Source: Steroidobacteraceae bacterium (lineage in GTDB: Bacteria; Chloroflexota; Limnocylindria; QHBO01). Taken from it: 64,000 nt of DNA. Both the position numbers and the translations under genes were made by a program. Below the pieces are notes generated by a model that did not search any database, was not told the origin of the DNA, and was given only the letters and a program-made list of their open reading frames with translations. Every line of letters starts with the position of its first letter. Positions within the stretch are counted from its first letter, which is position 1. The DNA lies in the NCBI GenBank assembly GCA_025935615.1, contig JAICUY010000002.1, positions 6,605 through 70,604 of the forward strand. The letters run 5' to 3'. Below are positions 6,513-53,626 of this stretch, piece after piece.

Positions 6513-7604
<1,092 letters not shown>

Positions 7605-47178: not shown

Positions 47179-47188
47179 CACAAACAAC

Positions 47189-47221
47189 GGGAGTGCCGCA
47201 GGGGGGAACCACGGCACTCCC
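47189..47221. terminator. Bidirectional terminator hairpin between convergent genes (GGGAGTGCCG..CGGCACTCCC)
   Basis: The stem is 10 bp perfect with a 13-nt loop. It lies 11 nt after the CsoR stop and 50 nt after the 923-aa gene stop. Confidence 0.45.
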
Positions 47222-47270
47222 GGCCAGAGTGTAGCGATCTGCGTCAAGGAACGGCGGACCGCTTGGCCGC

Positions 47271-50042
47271 TTACTCGCCGAAGATCGTCAGCTGCTCGCC
47301 GCCGCGCTCGATGAGGGGGTCTAGGCCGAGCACCGGCTCGAGCCGATCCAGCCCGGCACCGGGCCGCGCCGCCAGGGCATCGAGGTGCTGCCACTTCAGG
47401 ACGTGCCAGTTCTGGCGATCCATTTCGGAACGGAGCCACGGCGAGCGCTCCAGCTTCAGGCGCAGCAGCTCGCCACGCTCCGCGGGCAGGACCAGGAAGC
47501 GCGCCTGTTGGTCGTCGCTCGGGATCTGTGCTCCACGTCGGAGCACAGCCTCCCCGACCATGGCGGTCCATTCCACCTCGAACAGGAAGACGAGTCTGCC
47601 GCGCACGTACCACAGCGCGTCGACCGCGCCGAGTGCGTCCGCCGGCGCGCGTAGGACGAGCGGGAGGTAGACGCGACGCTCCTCGTCGGCGAGTCGCTCA
47701 CCGAGCGGCGTCCCATCGATGAGCCGAGCCTGCTCGCGTTTGCTGATCCAGACCCGCAGGCCGAGGCGATGGCCGTAGTCGGCGAGCGCTGCCAGCACCC
47801 TGCCGTGATCCTCGATGCGGCCTGCCAGCTCGTCCTCGGTTCGCAGCTCTCCACGCTCGTTGACCGCCGCATAGGCGGCCAGGCAGGCACGCACCAGCTC
47901 CTCGTCCGGCGCCGCGAGCCCCGGGAAGATGGCGTAGATCCGCTCCAGGAAGGCGGCCGTGTCGAGGCGGCCGGCGGTGGACAGGATCGAGAAGGTGGCC
48001 CACTCGACCCGGTCGGCGAGCGGCGACTCCGCCAGCTCCGGCTGGCGCAGCCACCACAGCGGCCGCGCCTCGTCGCCGAGCCGCTCGAGCGTCGGATGGT
48101 CGTCGCGCCACAGCTCCTCGCGCAGGAGGCGCGCGAGCAATGCGGAGCCGGCGCGCTCCATGCGCTGGTCGCCGTCGTCGGGCGTGCCGTGTTCAGCGCC
48201 GCGCTGCAGCGCCAGCCGCCGCAGCAGGCCGCGCCGCTCGAGCTCGAGCACGACTGCCGCCGCGACCCGTGTCAGGCCTGCCGGCTCACCGCGGTCGCGC
48301 AACAGGCCGAGCGTGGCCGCCTCCATCGCCTCGGCCAGCTCCGGATAGGTGAGCCGCTCTCCTTCCGCCCCCAGTCGCAGCGGCCGCGGCTGGACGGCGT
48401 GACGCAGCCGGTCCTCGACGGACGGCTTGCGGAAATGGAGCCGCAATCCGTCGCCCGAGCGGCGCGACTCCCGCACGACCACGTCGGTCAGCTCGAGGCC
48501 GGCGGCGGCACCGGCCACTGCGAGCCCCAGCAGGCGATCGGGATCGTCACCCTCCAGGATGACCGCGAACCATCCGTCGGGCTTCAGGGTGCTCGCCGCG
48601 GATGCGACGGCGTGGCGCAGCGCAGTCGCCTCGGCTGCCTGGCTGCGGTCGATCCCCGATCCGAACAGTGGCTCCAGCCGCAGCGTCTCGGCTGCCTCGC
48701 GACCCATCAGCCAACCCGTGGCGAGGTACTCGAAGCTGAGCTCGTCGACGCTCGGCGGCGGCGCTGCCGAACCGAGGACGAGATCGACGCTTTCCGCAGG
48801 CAGGTACTGCCCGACCACCGCCGGCCGGCAACGGACCCACAGCAAATTTGCGGCGCTGACGCTGCCGAGGTCCGAGAAGTCGGTCGCAAAGCGCGCCGGG
48901 CGGCGGTCGTCGGCACCGATCGACAGCGCGGTGCGCACATCATCCACCGCCGCCTCGAACAGCTGCCAGACGTTCGCCTCGCGCTGGTAGCGCGATGCCG
49001 GCTGCCGGACGTGCCCGTTGCTGATGCGCAGCGAGGCGACGCGCCCCGGGTACCCGTTCAGCCGGCTGGCCGGGAGCAGGCATGCGGCCAGCGCAAGGCG
49101 CATGACCGCCGCCATCGGCTGGCTGCGGAACTCGGCGTCGATCTTGTTTGCAATCGTCTGCAGCGCGTACAGGTTGCGCGGCGTGAACAGCTCGAGCAGC
49201 TCATCGACGAGCTCGTGGCGGCCGTCGAGCACCGGAAAGCGCTCACGCAGCTGTGTGTAGTGCTGGCTGTGCTGCACGTCGGCGGTCGGCTGACTGATGC
49301 TCTCGGGCCGCACCGTCGATGCGTAGCGGGGACCGGCCGACAGGGCCGCGCCGGATGCGGAACCCCGGCGGCCAGGGGGTGGAGGCCCGCCCGGCTCTCC
49401 GAGCGGCTGCTCCGGCATGCCGGTCAGGCCCGTCGGCGCCGGCGGCAGGTCCTCATCGAGGTCGGCCGCGAGCTCGGGTGTGCTGCGTGGGGCGGCATCC
49501 TCGATGCCGAGCTTGGCCAGGTCGCCCTCGTCGACCGGGGCCACGCGTTCCTCGGGCCCACCAACCGACACGTCGCAGTTCGCGCAGTGGTACATCTTGC
49601 GGCCCGGCGCGTCGGCATCGCGTGGCCAGATGAACTGGTCGCCCACCACCGGTCGCCGGCACGTGCCACACCGCGTCGCGTACAGCTCCTCGATGTGCTG
49701 GCGGAGAGGCACGTCCACCCGGCGCGATCGAGCCAGCTGCTCGAACGCGGCCTGAATGGACCCCTCGTCCGGCGACGTCAGGAAGGCCTGCGCCACCAAC
49801 TGGGCAAACGGGCTTGGATCCGCCGCGACCGCCCGGAGGCCGTGCGCGGTTGCGCGGCGCGCGGTCCAGCCGGTCCCGGCCCACGGGTCGAGCACGGTGT
49901 CGCCCGCCGCGGCGAACGCATCGAGCTCGGCGTCGATCAGGTTGTCGGCGGGCGACGGAAAGTAGCGCTCGAGGAGCGCCAGGCCGGGGAGGCGTCGCGG
50001 AAGGACGACGTGATCGTGTCGCTTCCGATCAGCCTCGCGCAT
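47271..50042 (-). CDS. Large orphan protein (923 aa) with N-terminal N6/N4-DNA-methylase motif-I-like segment, CxxC..CxxC zinc ribbon and C-terminal PD-(D/E)xK-like strand
   Basis: The segment VLDPWAGTGWTARRATAHGLRAVAADPSPFAQLV resembles the VLDPFAGSGTT..GR..IGIE motif of N6_N4_Mtase. A Zn ribbon (RCGTCRRPV...HCANCD) follows. The C-terminal ..DALWYVRGRLVFLFEVEWT is PD-(D/E)xK-like. No Walker motifs are present. Composition is good across the whole length. Confidence 0.6.
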   Translation of the reverse strand: MREADRKRHDHVVLPRRLPGLALLERYFPSPADNLIDAELDAFAAAGDTVLDPWAGTGWTARRATAHGLRAVAADPSPFAQLVAQAFLTSPDEGSIQAAFEQLARSRRVDVPLRQHIEELYATRCGTCRRPVVGDQFIWPRDADAPGRKMYHCANCDVSVGGPEERVAPVDEGDLAKLGIEDAAPRSTPELAADLDEDLPPAPTGLTGMPEQPLGEPGGPPPPGRRGSASGAALSAGPRYASTVRPESISQPTADVQHSQHYTQLRERFPVLDGRHELVDELLELFTPRNLYALQTIANKIDAEFRSQPMAAVMRLALAACLLPASRLNGYPGRVASLRISNGHVRQPASRYQREANVWQLFEAAVDDVRTALSIGADDRRPARFATDFSDLGSVSAANLLWVRCRPAVVGQYLPAESVDLVLGSAAPPPSVDELSFEYLATGWLMGREAAETLRLEPLFGSGIDRSQAAEATALRHAVASAASTLKPDGWFAVILEGDDPDRLLGLAVAGAAAGLELTDVVVRESRRSGDGLRLHFRKPSVEDRLRHAVQPRPLRLGAEGERLTYPELAEAMEAATLGLLRDRGEPAGLTRVAAAVVLELERRGLLRRLALQRGAEHGTPDDGDQRMERAGSALLARLLREELWRDDHPTLERLGDEARPLWWLRQPELAESPLADRVEWATFSILSTAGRLDTAAFLERIYAIFPGLAAPDEELVRACLAAYAAVNERGELRTEDELAGRIEDHGRVLAALADYGHRLGLRVWISKREQARLIDGTPLGERLADEERRVYLPLVLRAPADALGAVDALWYVRGRLVFLFEVEWTAMVGEAVLRRGAQIPSDDQQARFLVLPAERGELLRLKLERSPWLRSEMDRQNWHVLKWQHLDALAARPGAGLDRLEPVLGLDPLIERGGEQLTIFGE

Positions 50043-50048
50043 CGGCTC

Positions 50049-50924
50049 CTACGATTCTTCGAGCAGCTCTTCCTCGAGCTCAGGCTCGGCTGAGAACTCC
50101 GGGAGCGTGGTGTCGAGCTCCTCGACTTCCTCGGACTCCTCGTCGAGCTCTTCGCTCTCCTCCTCGTCATCGTAGCGGAGCGCCGTGCCCTTCATGTACG
50201 GTCGCACGTCACCCGCGCGAGCCGCCGTGGTGCCGGGGAATGACACCTTGCCGAAGTTGGAGGGATGGCCGAAGACTTCCCGGATGATGATCCGCACGTC
50301 GTCGTTGCTGACCACGGTGATGGCGGCTTCGTAGCGATTGCCGCCCTCGACCAGCTTGACGAGGCGCGTACCGATCCGAGGCTCGACCTGTCCGATCTCG
50401 GACTGGCCGGCCATGGCGACCAGCTGCTCCCCCTCGACGCGCAACTCGACTCCGTCGCCCGGCGATAGTGGAGCCAGGACGCGAGGAGCGGCCAGGTTGA
50501 TGAGGCGGGCATGGCCCGTCTTGCCCATCTCCTCGATGAAGTGCGCCGCCGAGGCCTTCTCGGGGCGGCCGTTGGGCGCCTTGGCTCCGTGGCCGTCGGA
50601 GCGATTGGCGACGAGCACCCGCAGCCGCTCGACGTTGCGCTCGGCAATGCGGTTGGTGTTATCGCGCTCGAGCGCGTGCTCATAGGCCTCGAGCGCCTCA
50701 TCCTCGCGGCCGAGCTCGGCCAGGGCCTTACCCAGCCGGTTGTAGGTGTCGGTATCCGGTCCGAGCTCCAGCAGCTCGCGGTTGGCATCGACGGCAGCCT
50801 CCCACTCGCCGCGGGTGGCATGTCCGATCGCCGTATCGGCGAGCTGTCGGCGCTGGCGGTTGATGGTGTCGATCTCACCGAGCGTCATCAGTTCTGACGT
50901 CTCCAGTTCTGGCGCAAGTAGCAC
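50049..50924 (-). CDS. TPR-repeat protein with C-terminal poly-acidic tail, co-operonic with the 923-aa protein
   Basis: TPR-like repeats sit at the N-terminus (YNRLGKALAELGREDEALEAYEHALERD). A beta-rich middle domain is followed by the tail DDEEESEELDEESEEVEELD..EEELLEES. There is a 6-nt gap to the downstream gene. Confidence 0.55.
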   Translation of the reverse strand: MLLAPELETSELMTLGEIDTINRQRRQLADTAIGHATRGEWEAAVDANRELLELGPDTDTYNRLGKALAELGREDEALEAYEHALERDNTNRIAERNVERLRVLVANRSDGHGAKAPNGRPEKASAAHFIEEMGKTGHARLINLAAPRVLAPLSPGDGVELRVEGEQLVAMAGQSEIGQVEPRIGTRLVKLVEGGNRYEAAITVVSNDDVRIIIREVFGHPSNFGKVSFPGTTAARAGDVRPYMKGTALRYDDEEESEELDEESEEVEELDTTLPEFSAEPELEEELLEES

Positions 50925-51035: not shown

Positions 51036-51815
51036 TCAGCCGATCTGATGCAGGAGGAGTGCCATCAACAGGCCGAGCAGGGCCAGCGCGCCGAACTCGA
51101 GCGCGACACTGCGATTGCTGCGGCCCTCGTCGAGCGCCTCGACCGCGCCACCCCACACGTAGAAGGAGAGCGCGACGACCGCGGGTGCGGCGACCCCCGG
51201 AAGGGCCAGCAGGACCAATGCCGCGCCGGCCTGTGCGACCGCCAGGCTGTGCAGCAGCGCCAGCCCGAGCGCACGGAGACCGGTGCTGCCCCGGCCTTCC
51301 GCCGCGCGCACCGCGAGCACGAAGCTGACGAGACCGATCAGCGCCAGCGGGGGCGGCCAAGTCGACTGCCCAAAGAGCCGCCAGATGCCGGCTGCTGCCA
51401 GGAAGAGGATCCCCACCAGCGCCAGGTCGAGCGTGGTGCGCGCTCCGAGTCCCACCGCGGTGCGCATCTCCAACCACAGGACGGCCCAGATCAGCACCGC
51501 CGCCAGCGGCGTCAGCAGCACGGCCGTGCCCGGCGCGAGCAGCCGGCCCGCGAGCGTCAATGACAGTGCGGTGATGGCCGGCGTCGCGTATCGCGCCAGC
51601 CCGAGCTCGGGACGCGCCGGGCCGATGAGCCGCACCGCACCGGCCCCGCCGATCGCGAGCTGCAGGCCGACCGCGACCGCCAACCACGTCCCGCCGCTGA
51701 CCCAGCCGACGGCCGCCAGCACGGCGAGCACCAGGGACAGGCCGACCACCTCCGGCCGATCGATGCGCTGGAGCAGGCGCTGCGCCCGACTGCCGCGAAG
51801 CATGCCGTCCATCAT
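51036..51815 (-). CDS. Polytopic integral membrane protein of unknown function
   Basis: At least 7 TM helices are predicted. The ATG at 51815 forms an ATGA overlap with the PolX stop, and the longer track form would overlap PolX by 67 nt. Confidence 0.5.
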   Translation of the reverse strand: MMDGMLRGSRAQRLLQRIDRPEVVGLSLVLAVLAAVGWVSGGTWLAVAVGLQLAIGGAGAVRLIGPARPELGLARYATPAITALSLTLAGRLLAPGTAVLLTPLAAVLIWAVLWLEMRTAVGLGARTTLDLALVGILFLAAAGIWRLFGQSTWPPPLALIGLVSFVLAVRAAEGRGSTGLRALGLALLHSLAVAQAGAALVLLALPGVAAPAVVALSFYVWGGAVEALDEGRSNRSVALEFGALALLGLLMALLLHQIG

Positions 51816-53566
51816 CGGACCAGCTCGAGCAGTTCGCCGACCGATCGCGTCGACAGCAGCTGGGCCGGAGTCAACCACGCGCGACGCGCCATCGAGACGG
51901 CGTAGCGCAGCTGATCGAGCTCCTCCGTCCGGTGCGCGTCGCTCGCCACGGTCAGGCGGGCGCCGGCCGCCGCCGCCGCCCGGGCCAGCGTGTCATCCAG
52001 ATCGAGGCGAGGGCTGCCGTTGATCTCGAGCGCAGTGCCGTGCTTCGCCGCCGCGTCGAAGACGCGCGGCCAGTCGAGCATCAGCGGATCGCGCCGGTTC
52101 ACGATTCGCCCGGTGGGATGCGCCAGCACGTCCACGTGCGGATTGGTGATGGCGGCCAGCGCGCGCGTGGTGAGCTGCTCGGACGGCTGTGCCCGGCCGG
52201 TATGGATGCTCGCGATGACGAGGTCGAACCGCGCCAGCAGCTCATCGGGATAGTCCAGCGTGCCGTCGGCGCGGATCTCGAGTTCGGTGCCATGGAGGAT
52301 GCGAAATGGCGCCAGCTCCGCGTTGAGCCGCGCGATCTCGGTGCGCTGCTGCTCGACGCGGTCAGGCGCCAGGCCTCGGGCTATTCCCAGCGACGGCGTG
52401 TGGTCGGTGAGAACGATCCATGCGCGTCCCACGTCTCGTGCGGCTCGGGCCATGACCTCGATGCTGTCGACGCCGTCGGTCCAATCCGAGTGGGTGTGCG
52501 TGTCGCCGCGGATGTCGTCGAGCGTGACGAGGTCGGGCAGCGTTCCCAGCGCGGCCGCCTCGATCTCGCCGGTCCCCTCGCGCAGCTCCGGTGCGATCCA
52601 CGCCAGGTCGAGGCGCTCATAGACCTCTTCCTCGGTCGCAGCCAGGAGCAACTCCCCGCTGTCGAGCACCTTGAACCCCTTCTCCGACAGCGACCAGCCG
52701 CGTGCCAGGGCACGGCCGCGGAGCGCGATGTTGTGGTCGGCGCGGCCGGTGAAATGAACGAGATGCGTGCCCCACGCCGCGGGCGGACAGAGCATGAGGT
52801 CGACCTGGGGCCCGTCACGCAGCACGATGCTCGACTTGTCCGTCCCGGCCGAAACGACATGGTCGACCTCCGCCAGGCCGTCGAGCGCTGCGATCAACGG
52901 CGCCGGATCGCTGACCGCCGCCAGCAGGTCCAGGTCGCCGATCGTAGCCCGGCGGCGGCGCAGCGAGCCTGCCGGCTCGATCGACACGACGCCGGCGGTG
53001 TTCCGCAGCCGTGCGAGCAGCGAGCCGACCAGCTCGTCCGCCTCGTGGAGCAGCAACCGCGTGCTGCGTCGCTCGATGCGGCCGATGCCGGCCAGGATGT
53101 TCTCCTCGGTGCGCGCCGAGAGGCCCTTGAGCGAACGCAGCTGGCCACCTTCCGCGGCCGCCCGAAGCGCCTCGACCGAGTCGATGCGCAGCTCGTCGTG
53201 CAGCTGCTTGACGGTGCGCGGGCCGACGCCCGGCACGCGCAGCATGTCGAGCAGCCCGACGGGCACCTGGGCACGCAAGCGGTCGTGGTACTCGAGACGG
53301 CCCGTCTCGGCGAGCTCGGCCAGCTTGGCGCCGATGGCCGCCCCCGCGCCCGGAATCTTCGGCGGCTCGCCACGGCGGTAGAGGGCCGCCACGTCATCGG
53401 GATAGCGCTCGATCGCGTCAGCCACGCGCCGGTAGGCGACCGCCTTGTACACGACCTCGCCCAGGATCTCGAGCGTGTCGCCGATCTCGTTGAAGATGCG
53501 CGCCAGCTCGGAGTTGCTGAGCACGCCGGGCTCGCCACTGCGCGGCGCGGCACGAGGTCGAGGCAT
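51812..53566 (-). CDS. DNA polymerase X family protein with C-terminal PHP phosphoesterase domain
   Basis: An HhH region (LSNSELARIFNEIGDTLEILGE) and the pol-beta nucleotidyltransferase motif GSLRRRRATIGDLDLL are present. The PHP motif GDTHTHSDWTDG is also present. The start is the ATG at 53566, with a TTG alternative at 53587. Confidence 0.85.
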   Translation of the reverse strand: MPRPRAAPRSGEPGVLSNSELARIFNEIGDTLEILGEVVYKAVAYRRVADAIERYPDDVAALYRRGEPPKIPGAGAAIGAKLAELAETGRLEYHDRLRAQVPVGLLDMLRVPGVGPRTVKQLHDELRIDSVEALRAAAEGGQLRSLKGLSARTEENILAGIGRIERRSTRLLLHEADELVGSLLARLRNTAGVVSIEPAGSLRRRRATIGDLDLLAAVSDPAPLIAALDGLAEVDHVVSAGTDKSSIVLRDGPQVDLMLCPPAAWGTHLVHFTGRADHNIALRGRALARGWSLSEKGFKVLDSGELLLAATEEEVYERLDLAWIAPELREGTGEIEAAALGTLPDLVTLDDIRGDTHTHSDWTDGVDSIEVMARAARDVGRAWIVLTDHTPSLGIARGLAPDRVEQQRTEIARLNAELAPFRILHGTELEIRADGTLDYPDELLARFDLVIASIHTGRAQPSEQLTTRALAAITNPHVDVLAHPTGRIVNRRDPLMLDWPRVFDAAAKHGTALEINGSPRLDLDDTLARAAAAAGARLTVASDAHRTEELDQLRYAVSMARRAWLTPAQLLSTRSVGELLELVR

Positions 53567-53626
53567 CTGCGCAGATTCTAGAGACAAGCGAAGGGCCGCC
53601 CCCTGTGTGGGAGCGGCCCGTATCGG

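Follow-up and report, generated by a model that had tools for sequence, protein, structure and literature searches.

What is the 923-amino-acid (aa) protein encoded on the reverse strand of the window analysed here (the whole stretch of 64,000 nucleotides (nt), positions 6,605 to 70,604 of contig JAICUY010000002.1, from a bacterium placed by GTDB in the Limnocylindria of the Chloroflexota), 6 nt downstream of a gene for a tetratricopeptide-repeat (TPR) protein? A preliminary description, made from the sequence alone, had treated the pair as an orphan operon and had offered three readings of the larger product: a degenerate or repurposed methylase-like DNA-binding protein, a single-chain defence or repair factor, or an unrelated protein reusing a Rossmann fragment. 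The two open reading frames (ORFs), their spacing and all of the motifs listed there are real, as judged from coordinates and sequence, and the first of the three readings agrees with our findings, which combine homology to DNA methyltransferases (MTases) with the loss of catalytic motif IV. Two things had been missed, namely the most conserved feature of the protein, a C-terminal QLxLF motif, and its kinship with PglXI/BrxXI-type methylases. The family descends from N6-adenine DNA MTases of the PglXI/BrxXI type, fused to an NmeDI-like restriction-endonuclease domain, and the window protein may now act as a DNA-recognition factor tethered to the sliding clamp.

The segment VLDPWAGTGWTARRATAHGLRAVAADPSPF at aa 50-79 matches motifs X, I and II of beta-class N6/N4 MTases. 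The N-terminal likeness to motif I, already pointed out in the preliminary description, is borne out by the match to TTHA0409 (PDB 2zie), whose E-value fell from 0.003 for the single sequence to 8.6e-12 when a family profile made from a 68-sequence alignment was used; the same profile also retrieved M.RsrI (1.4e-10), the N4-cytosine MTase 8s9n (1.1e-8), M.MboIIA (5e-7) and CcrM (1.7e-6) from PDB. Other single-sequence searches yielded a sub-threshold Pfam N6_N4_Mtase match (E = 0.06) and weak MTase_II, PHROG and PDB matches, within aa 2-127. The PDB matches consist of two collinear pieces, in which the N-terminus of the query is aligned with the C-terminal motifs X/I of the target, and aa ~405-432 with the target N-terminal “...SVHLVVTSPPYW” containing motif IV. 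The protein holds the whole N6/N4 amino-MTase fold in a circular permutation of the PF01555 order; contrary to what had been thought, motif I does not stand alone, the rest of the fold being located at aa 400-545, and, since the whole fold is present, an unrelated protein reusing a Rossmann fragment can be rejected.

An AlphaFold2 model based on the 68-sequence alignment (predicted local distance difference test (pLDDT) score 87.4, predicted template-modelling (pTM) score 0.86), which superseded an earlier run on 18 close homologues with a poor N-terminal half (pLDDT 58), has a seven-strand core, with strands 1 and 2 at aa 49-52 and 70-74 and strands 3-7 at aa 400-403, 419-425, 486-497, 517-524 and 532-538. 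Foldseek comparison of the model with PDB gave class I MTases, including 2zie, CcrM, M.EcoKI and BsaXI, and the best match in a viral library was a Pandoravirus N4-cytosine DNA methylase (1.7e-7), so that the motif I likeness is backed by predicted structure as well as by profile searches. The ~600 aa once regarded as unassignable resolve into an insert resembling a target recognition domain (TRD), the second half of the Rossmann fold and a helical/winged-helix region. In the insert, R289 and E355 are invariant and N357 and W359 are at least 90% conserved, and the YTPRNL and ERNVW motifs to which they belong recur in canonical relatives. The CxxC...CxxC zinc ribbon (C125/C128/C153/C156) is indeed there and near-invariant: all four cysteines are invariant in a 29-sequence alignment of distant members, while in the 68-sequence alignment this holds for three of them, with C156 conserved at 90% or more; the ribbon also gave weak matches to TFIIS/Rpb9 zinc ribbons. 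The region that follows the core (aa 546-740) is modelled as ~195 aa of helices with two beta-hairpins, with weak winged-helix (Stork_head) Pfam matches in relatives, and its RGEP and PLxDRVE motifs are common to the canonical relatives.

Catalytic residues have fared differently from this scaffold. Motif I is present as DPWAGTG; the motif IV site is recognisable but degenerate (VDLVLGSAAPPPS, aa 419-431), being occupied by a variable GSAAPPPS. No (D/N/S)PP(Y/F) occurs after motif I in the 923-aa protein, as the earlier remark on the lack of a convincing DPPY had it, and within Limnocylindria the tetrapeptide varies freely (SAAP, SVGA, MPSV, SPPP and others) despite ~70% protein identity, while DELSFEY, directly after the site, is invariant within the class. 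In amino-MTases, the first residue of (D/N/S)PP(Y/F/W) binds the amino group that is to be methylated, and stacking on the flipped base is provided by the aromatic residue; because this element is lost, methyl transfer to DNA by the 923-aa protein is, from its sequence, very unlikely.

Column read-outs of the 68-sequence alignment were compared for canonical distant relatives (n = 4), Limnocylindria (n = 11), a sister lineage with 36-42% identity (n = 17) and other Chloroflexota-type sequences (n = 36). In that order, the GxG of motif I is found in 4, 11, 16 and 1 sequences, the acidic residue at the end of strand 2 in 4, 11, 17 and 14, and motif IV in 4, 0, 0 and 0, that is, in none of the 64 Chloroflexota-type sequences. 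D808 is kept in 4, 11, 17 and 28, E822 in 4, 11, 17 and 7, and E824 in 4, 11, 17 and 11; the four cysteines in 3, 11, 17 and 36 (64/64 Chloroflexota-type sequences), and the QLxLF-like tail in 2, 11, 17 and 31 (59/64). What is conserved branch-wide is the DNA-recognition scaffold and the C-terminal tail, and not the catalytic sites. The canonical relatives, in which motif I reads DPFxGSGVT, motif IV FTDPPY(G/W) and the C-terminus D...EVE(N/H)T, reveal the ancestry: all four match PADLOC PglXI at 1e-45 to 1e-72, Pfam N6_N4_Mtase at ~1e-20 and NCBIfam DUF1156_antiphage, and 11 of 29 degenerate members still match PglXI, with a best E-value of 1.9e-10. An N-terminal HK(F/Y)W(A/T)RKP motif is also present in canonical relatives (P0328, P0339, P0378, P0388; L095), and appears to resemble the DUF1156 signature.

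The second module, a restriction-endonuclease-like domain, lies at aa 741-905. The Pfam family PF27126 (NmeDI_C) is precomputed on database protein P0001, whose sequence is that of the window protein, and on numerous homologues, as an unmarked, strong match (E<=1e-5) on P0261, P0328 and P0339 and as a match marked weak on P0402 and P0406 of the sister lineage; moreover, PADLOC REase_II (PDLC03534) matches 11 of 20 excised C-terminal domains, the best at 1.7e-6. The restriction-endonuclease-like C-terminus proposed in the preliminary description thus finds support at the family level, and falls short at the level of the window's own domain, which was unmatched by PDLC03534 when taken alone. A profile of the C-terminal domain found nothing in PDB, the local Pfam copy gave no match for this domain, PF27126 never surfacing in local scans, and Foldseek with the poorer model, aimed at the C-terminal half, returned methyltransferases only. 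The D...FLFEVEW strand near the C-terminus is present, as described, in the form DALWYVRGRLVFLFEVEWT, with E822 and E824 contained in FLFEVEWT and D808 ahead of them. From N- to C-terminus, the model predicts the elements alpha 739-759, beta 763-766, beta 809-813, beta 817-823, alpha 830-839 and beta 846-852, with D808 just before the second strand and E822-x-E824 at the end of the third; the modelled order together with the acidic residues fits a PD-(D/E)xK core.

The protein ends in the peptide GLDPLIERGGEQLTIFGE, in which QLTIF matches the beta-clamp-binding consensus QL[SD]LF or QLxLF, usually situated at the flexible C-terminal end of clamp clients (PMC4549789). The strict pattern Q[LIM]x[LIM][FL] occurs within the last 12 aa in 166 of 177 close and intermediate homologues (>=850 aa), as compared with 0 of 120 homologues of the TPR partner and, among the 341 stop-to-stop ORFs of the window with a length of at least 100 aa, a single one. 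Of 70 distant representatives (>=700 aa), 52 satisfy a looser pattern over the same 12 C-terminal residues, and the others are mostly truncated, frame-shifted, or carry the motif further in (e.g. QLPLFEAGP...). Model confidence in the tail is 65 and then 43, while the residues just before it pack at 95. Nei-Gojobori estimates of dN/dS (the ratio of non-synonymous to synonymous substitution rates) from ten pairs at 92-98% amino-acid identity give 0.070 for the whole gene and 0.007 for the tail, the most constrained segment, followed by 0.034 for the TRD (aa 256-400), 0.043 for the motif I region and 0.063 for the restriction-enzyme-like domain.

Far from being an orphan, the protein belongs to a large family. 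Its close homologues number 444, most of them 65-80% identical to it and carrying the names Candidatus Limnocylindria or Chloroflexota. In the profile search against 1.84 billion cluster representatives, 1665 passed E<=1e-3 and 296 passed E<=1e-30, with many full-length proteins of 750-980 aa among them. All named members of the branch, the distant ones classified by cluster-member names, come from metagenome-assembled genomes (MAGs) of Chloroflexota: Limnocylindria, Anaerolineae, Dehalococcoidales and “Chloroflexi bacterium”. Full-length ORFs are present in at least 195 species-representative genomes, and the 80 loci kept from a genome scan with a 9-sequence alignment were all from Limnocylindria. 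Several near-identical homologues were also seen in MAGs named Steroidobacteraceae, Binatia, Zixibacteria, Dormibacteraeota, Acidoferrum and Myxococcaceae (L045, L054, L059, L060; P0036, P0012, P0193, P0206); as the synteny of Limnocylindria is complete in them and identity is 66-76%, mis-binning of Limnocylindria contigs is the probable cause. Databases call the family “hypothetical protein”, with an occasional weak “site-specific DNA-methyltransferase”. Full-text literature searches found no paper on PF27126, and none joining a clamp-binding motif, restriction-modification and an inactive methyltransferase.

In Limnocylindria the gene order is PolX, membrane protein, TPR protein, 923-aa protein, CsoR (on the opposite strand) and PIG-L. 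The TPR gene is directly upstream in 76/76 loci with enough flank and PolX is upstream in 65/65 loci with at least 4 kb of flank; identity to the window proteins across loci is 62-78% for the large protein, a range comparable to the 70-81% of PolX and the 69-86% of PIG-L. The sister lineage, whose protein is ~40% identical along most of its length and up to 53% in the best-matching local segment, retains PolX, the membrane protein and the TPR gene, with a MoxR/DUF58/DUF4129 operon on the other strand sitting between the TPR gene and the large gene, and with different downstream genes. In more distant Chloroflexota, the large gene stands alone among housekeeping genes, for example between an HD-domain protein and histidine ammonia-lyase, or near RsfS and NDK, with no TPR protein or defence partners at the loci examined. 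Thus, the co-occurrence of the two proteins, which the preliminary description had named as a check, holds as adjacency in Limnocylindria and proximity in the sister lineage and breaks down at the more distant loci, so that the two-gene operon is lineage-specific rather than a property of the family. The large gene itself is, in Limnocylindria, single, vertically inherited, syntenic and under strong purifying selection.

Several further observations concern these neighbourhoods. In another Chloroflexota lineage (L005:4792-5448, L006, L007, L094:5208-5828) the homologue is always preceded by a ~210-aa HD-domain protein, and histidine ammonia-lyase follows either directly or after a small toxin-antitoxin pair, making up a second conserved neighbourhood. 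A DUF885 gene lies directly 3′ of the large gene in the sister lineage (L003:10977-12659, L004:10987-12681), and P0394 (1524 aa) carries both PF27126 and PF05960, representing either a read-through or mis-called fusion or a true two-gene fusion. In two MAGs (MFD01275.bin.2.46 and LH_M65), each of two contigs (L074 and L088, L079 and L086) contains a full PolX-TPR-large gene block, which points to strain mixture or segmental duplication. Among canonical relatives, one of full length (42% identity to P0328) is on an IMG/VR viral contig and another follows an AAA_15/21 ATPase; their contexts are less informative or possibly mobile.

Vertical inheritance as a core gene of Chloroflexota suggests that a defence enzyme was turned into a replication/repair factor. 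The reading that we prefer, and to which we would give about an even chance, is that of a clamp-tethered DNA-recognition factor, possibly with nuclease activity, derived from a catalytically degenerate PglXI-like methylase fusion. Such a protein would no longer methylate DNA, and would recognise it by the methylase-derived TRD and helix-turn-helix (HTH) surfaces, while its flexible QLTIF tail would tether it to the beta sliding clamp, allowing it to work in the wake of replication or repair forks. S-adenosylmethionine (SAM) may still be bound in Limnocylindria and the sister lineage, where motif I and its acidic residue are intact and make a likely pocket, and where the D808/E822/E824 triad may still cut or nick DNA; by analogy, the mode of action could be like that of NucS/EndoMS, a restriction-fold nuclease activated through a clamp motif. 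The TPR/acidic protein would then be a lineage-specific, translationally coupled accessory within the PolX block, which may regulate or bridge the large protein; C-terminal peptides are common ligands of TPR domains, and DNA mimicry by a poly-acidic tail is conceivable. A fuller version of this model, distinctly unlikely in all its parts, would have a clamp-tethered, SAM-binding, non-methylating nuclease, specific to sequence or structure, exapted from a methylase-nuclease fusion of BREX/RM-type descent, forming in Limnocylindria and the sister lineage a hitherto unknown post-replicative DNA-surveillance or repair module with the TPR partner and PolX and doing a MutH- or NucS-like job, with a purely clamp-associated DNA reader elsewhere in Chloroflexota.

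A number of points weigh against clamp tethering and nuclease function. The case for clamp binding comes from a short linear motif, and the motif is embedded in a longer conserved peptide, GLDPxxE...QLxLF, which could serve another partner such as the TPR protein. The 923-aa protein is acidic (pI 5.35, net charge -25), which is unusual for a DNA binder. The acidic triad is gone from most other Chloroflexota members, so nuclease activity is not the family-wide function, and the failure of the window's own C-terminal domain to match PDLC03534 also counts here. Finally, synteny with PolX may reflect nothing more than common descent, as the genes downstream are conserved to the same degree in the class.

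Of the alternatives, the one that survives best, though we regard it as unlikely, is a non-enzymatic DNA-binding or scaffold protein whose tail docks another partner, in Limnocylindria the TPR protein, a choice suggested by the typical binding of C-terminal peptides by TPR domains. The extent of tail conservation beyond the pentapeptide, the translational coupling and invariable adjacency of the TPR gene within the class, and the loss of both catalytic sites in many members would all be accounted for. However, the tail is also conserved in lineages with no TPR gene nearby, and a C-terminal QLxLF is the established clamp-binding consensus (PMC4549789), both of which count against this reading.

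An active SAM-dependent MTase with a non-canonical loop or a non-DNA substrate (protein, RNA or a small molecule) is improbable. In its favour, no Limnocylindria sequence departs from motif I or from the acidic residue that closes strand 2, this region being under strong constraint (dN/dS 0.043), and DELSFEY is invariant within the class. Yet the ELS..W helix after motif IV is conserved in canonical relatives too, and is therefore structural and no new active site, and the DNA-methylase-type TRD and HTH modules indicate a DNA ligand. The majority of Chloroflexota members have also lost GxG and the acidic residue while keeping the zinc finger, the TRD motifs and the tail, so SAM chemistry is not the conserved function of the branch.

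Still more improbable is a working single-chain restriction-modification or defence enzyme, similar to Type IIG/IIC or related to bacteriophage exclusion (BREX), which would methylate self and cut foreign DNA. Its attraction lies in the architecture of MTase plus restriction domain, in the nearest profile matches, which are defence methylases (PglXI, DUF1156, MTase_II), in the motif I and acidic triad left intact in Limnocylindria, and in canonical relatives found on a viral contig and beside an AAA_15/21 ATPase. Against it stand the missing motif IV, with a loop that varies freely among close relatives, a TRD that ranks among the most constrained segments (dN/dS 0.034) and is not diversifying, and strict class-wide synteny with no GC anomaly around the locus relative to the window. 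No BrxC, PglZ, BrxHII, helicase or DUF499 partner was found in the window or at any locus examined. The single-chain defence factor of the preliminary description is thus not favoured, in view of vertical inheritance, fixed synteny, strong purifying selection and the lack of defence neighbours. A decaying, pseudogene-like relic of a restriction-modification gene, to which only the loss of catalytic motifs would point, has a negligible chance given the full-length ORFs in at least 195 species-representative genomes, a dN/dS of 0.07 with every segment at or below 0.11, and residues that are invariant across 25%-identical sequences.

If the clamp-tethered factor is real, an anti-phage-type enzyme, a PglXI-like methylase with a restriction domain, would have been domesticated as a replisome-associated factor across a whole phylum, and would constitute a new class of beta-clamp client; to our knowledge, no bacterial methylase-like protein with a clamp motif has been known. 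The PglXI/DUF1156-type methylases and methylase-nuclease fusions were known already, and what is new here is the lost catalysis, the clamp-binding-type tail and the phylum-wide behaviour as a core gene. The family is a candidate for unexplored DNA-maintenance functions in Chloroflexota, which are poorly studied and mostly uncultured, and more than 1600 “hypothetical protein” clusters receive a testable annotation.

Table 1. Features of the locus, with positions in the window (nt), all on the reverse strand.
Feature	Position	Strand	Basis or content
Large gene, 923 aa	47271..50042	-	ATG start; MTase-like, helical/winged-helix and restriction-enzyme-like parts, QLxLF tail
MTase motifs X, I, II (aa 27-80), Rossmann strands 1 and 2	49803..49964	-	YFPSPADN...VLDPWAGTGWT...AVAAD75PSPF
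TRD-like alpha+beta insert (aa 95-399, ~300 aa) between strands 2 and 3	48846..49760	-	secondary structure; conserved YTPRNL (R289), ERNVW (E355/N357/W359)
4-Cys zinc ribbon C125, C128, C153, C156	49575..49670	-	beta-hairpins 131-140 and 148-151 in model
Pro-rich disordered loop (aa 180-258) inside insert, Limnocylindria only	49269..49505	-	pLDDT <50 for aa 202-253
Rossmann second half, strands 3-7 (aa 400-545)	48408..48845	-	profile aligns to N-terminal half of 2zie and RsrI; Foldseek class I MTases
Degenerate motif IV position (aa 419-432, VDLVLGSAAPPPSV)	48747..48788	-	replaces hhhh(D/N/S)PP(Y/F); aligned to SVHLVVTSPPYW of 2zie and FTDPPYG of canonical relatives
Helical/winged-helix region (aa 546-740)	47823..48407	-	conserved RGEP (aa 584-587), PLxDRVE (aa 674-680)
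Restriction-endonuclease-like (NmeDI_C-like) domain (aa 741-905)	47328..47822	-	Pfam PF27126 on homologues, PADLOC, predicted secondary structure
Candidate nuclease triad D808...E822-V-E824 (DALWYVRGRLVFLFEVE)	47571..47621	-	invariant in Limnocylindria, sister lineage and canonical relatives
Conserved tail GLDPLIERGGEQLTIFGE	47274..47327	-	QLTIF aa 917-921 of 923, nt 47280-47294
Strong intrinsic-terminator-like hairpin	47188..47222	-	14 bp, 10 G-C pairs, T-rich tail; just 3′ of large gene stop
AGGAG Shine-Dalgarno	50046..50050	-	5′ of large gene ATG, overlaps TPR stop codon; read from sequence
TPR/acidic-tail partner gene	50049..50924 (as listed)	-	TPR region, conserved middle domain, acidic tail
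Partner acidic C-terminal tail, 42 aa, net charge -22	50052..50177	-	conserved EEVEELDTxLPE(F/Y)S
PolX and 280-aa membrane protein	51036..53587 (PolX 51812-53587; membrane protein 51036-51878)	-	upstream, co-oriented with TPR gene

The AGGAG that overlaps the TPR stop codon suggests translational coupling of the TPR gene to the large gene. PolX was assigned by its Pfam PolX/PHP domains, the 280-aa membrane protein had no Pfam match, and no terminator-like site was predicted between the PolX, membrane-protein and TPR genes; judging from this layout, all four genes may form one operon and one transcription unit. At locus L001 the PolX and membrane-protein genes share a 4-nt overlap. The other side of the locus is occupied by a CsoR-type repressor, PIG-L, an ABC transporter and a DsbH-like thioredoxin, in keeping with the earlier placement between a CsoR-type regulator and other genes with no helicase or ATPase partner beside the large gene in the window. 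The window contains no tRNA genes or Rfam families. A 774-aa ORF antisense to the large gene (47769-50093, forward strand), rich in Arg, Pro and Gly, was not counted as a gene, its composition being typical of spurious antisense frames in DNA of 70% GC. The Pro-rich loop inside the insert, which is not present in distant homologues and has the highest dN/dS of all segments, 0.11 (0.112), keeps the short conserved motifs DLPPAPxGLT, LGExGxPP and ASTVxP, and these may represent a protein-binding linear motif.

The partner protein is, as had been described, a TPR protein (TPR_1 match at 6.9e-8) with a poly-acidic tail. Its ORF is listed from GTG at 50924; since all homologues begin at the equivalent of M13 (MTLGE...), the true start is probably the ATG at 50888, giving a protein of 279 aa. 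The middle domain (aa ~125-248, window 50250-50560, reverse strand) has the conserved pattern FIEEMGKTG...LSPGD.V.L...G.VEPR...GNRYEA...RIIIREVF...KVSFP and gave no Pfam or PDB match, and a HIRAN-like fold considered on the basis of a loose sequence pattern is unsupported by Pfam or PDB profile searches. A role like that of the tail of single-stranded DNA-binding protein was rejected for the LPEF motif, because this motif is internal and not C-terminal.

Comparison with known systems places the 923-aa protein closest to BrxXI/PglXI of Type-3 BREX and to the DUF1156 “BR” methylases, in which a ~250-residue insert between strands 2 and 3 is tipped by a 4-Cys zinc finger and the core is followed by HTH domains (PMC12839542). 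The Rossmann core, the alpha+beta TRD insert and the 4-Cys zinc finger are common to it and to PglXI/BrxXI and DUF1156 (COG1743), and its helical region after the core may correspond to their HTH domains, but the window protein lacks motif IV and adds the NmeDI-like domain and the QLxLF tail. In PglXI/BrxXI and DUF1156 systems, the methylase is in an operon with BrxC/PglZ/BrxHII (Type-3 BREX) or with a DUF499 ATPase and a helicase, none of which is beside the large gene, and those systems sit in defence islands, in contrast to a vertically inherited core gene. With the beta-class N6/N4 MTases of PF01555 (M.RsrI, TTHA0409, CcrM, M.PvuII) the protein shares homologous motifs X, I and II and the surroundings of motif IV, whereas it is permuted (X and I first, IV later), has a 300-aa insert and has lost the catalytic tetrapeptide. 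R.NmeDI has been characterised as a Type II restriction endonuclease (PMC2095814, which names no catalytic residues), and aa 741-905 match this type (NmeDI_C, REase_II PDLC03534) at the family level, with the D...ExE triad kept in the window lineage; here, however, the domain is fused to a methylase-like module, the window sequence matches weakly, the triad is lost in many relatives, and there is no cognate C5-methylase or Vsr gene. Type IIG/IIC enzymes such as MmeI and BsaXI, the latter among the weak Foldseek matches, likewise combine MTase, TRD and nuclease-like domain in one chain, but they have gamma-class MTases, an N-terminal nuclease, intact catalytic motifs and a sporadic distribution, as opposed to the lost motif IV, class-wide synteny and dN/dS of 0.07 seen here. 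As for NucS/EndoMS, no sequence relationship was detected, its models not being among the Pfam scan matches, and the DNA-recognition module is wholly different; the likeness would be one of functional analogy, to a restriction-fold mismatch endonuclease that works with the sliding clamp via a C-terminal clamp motif (PMC6159521).

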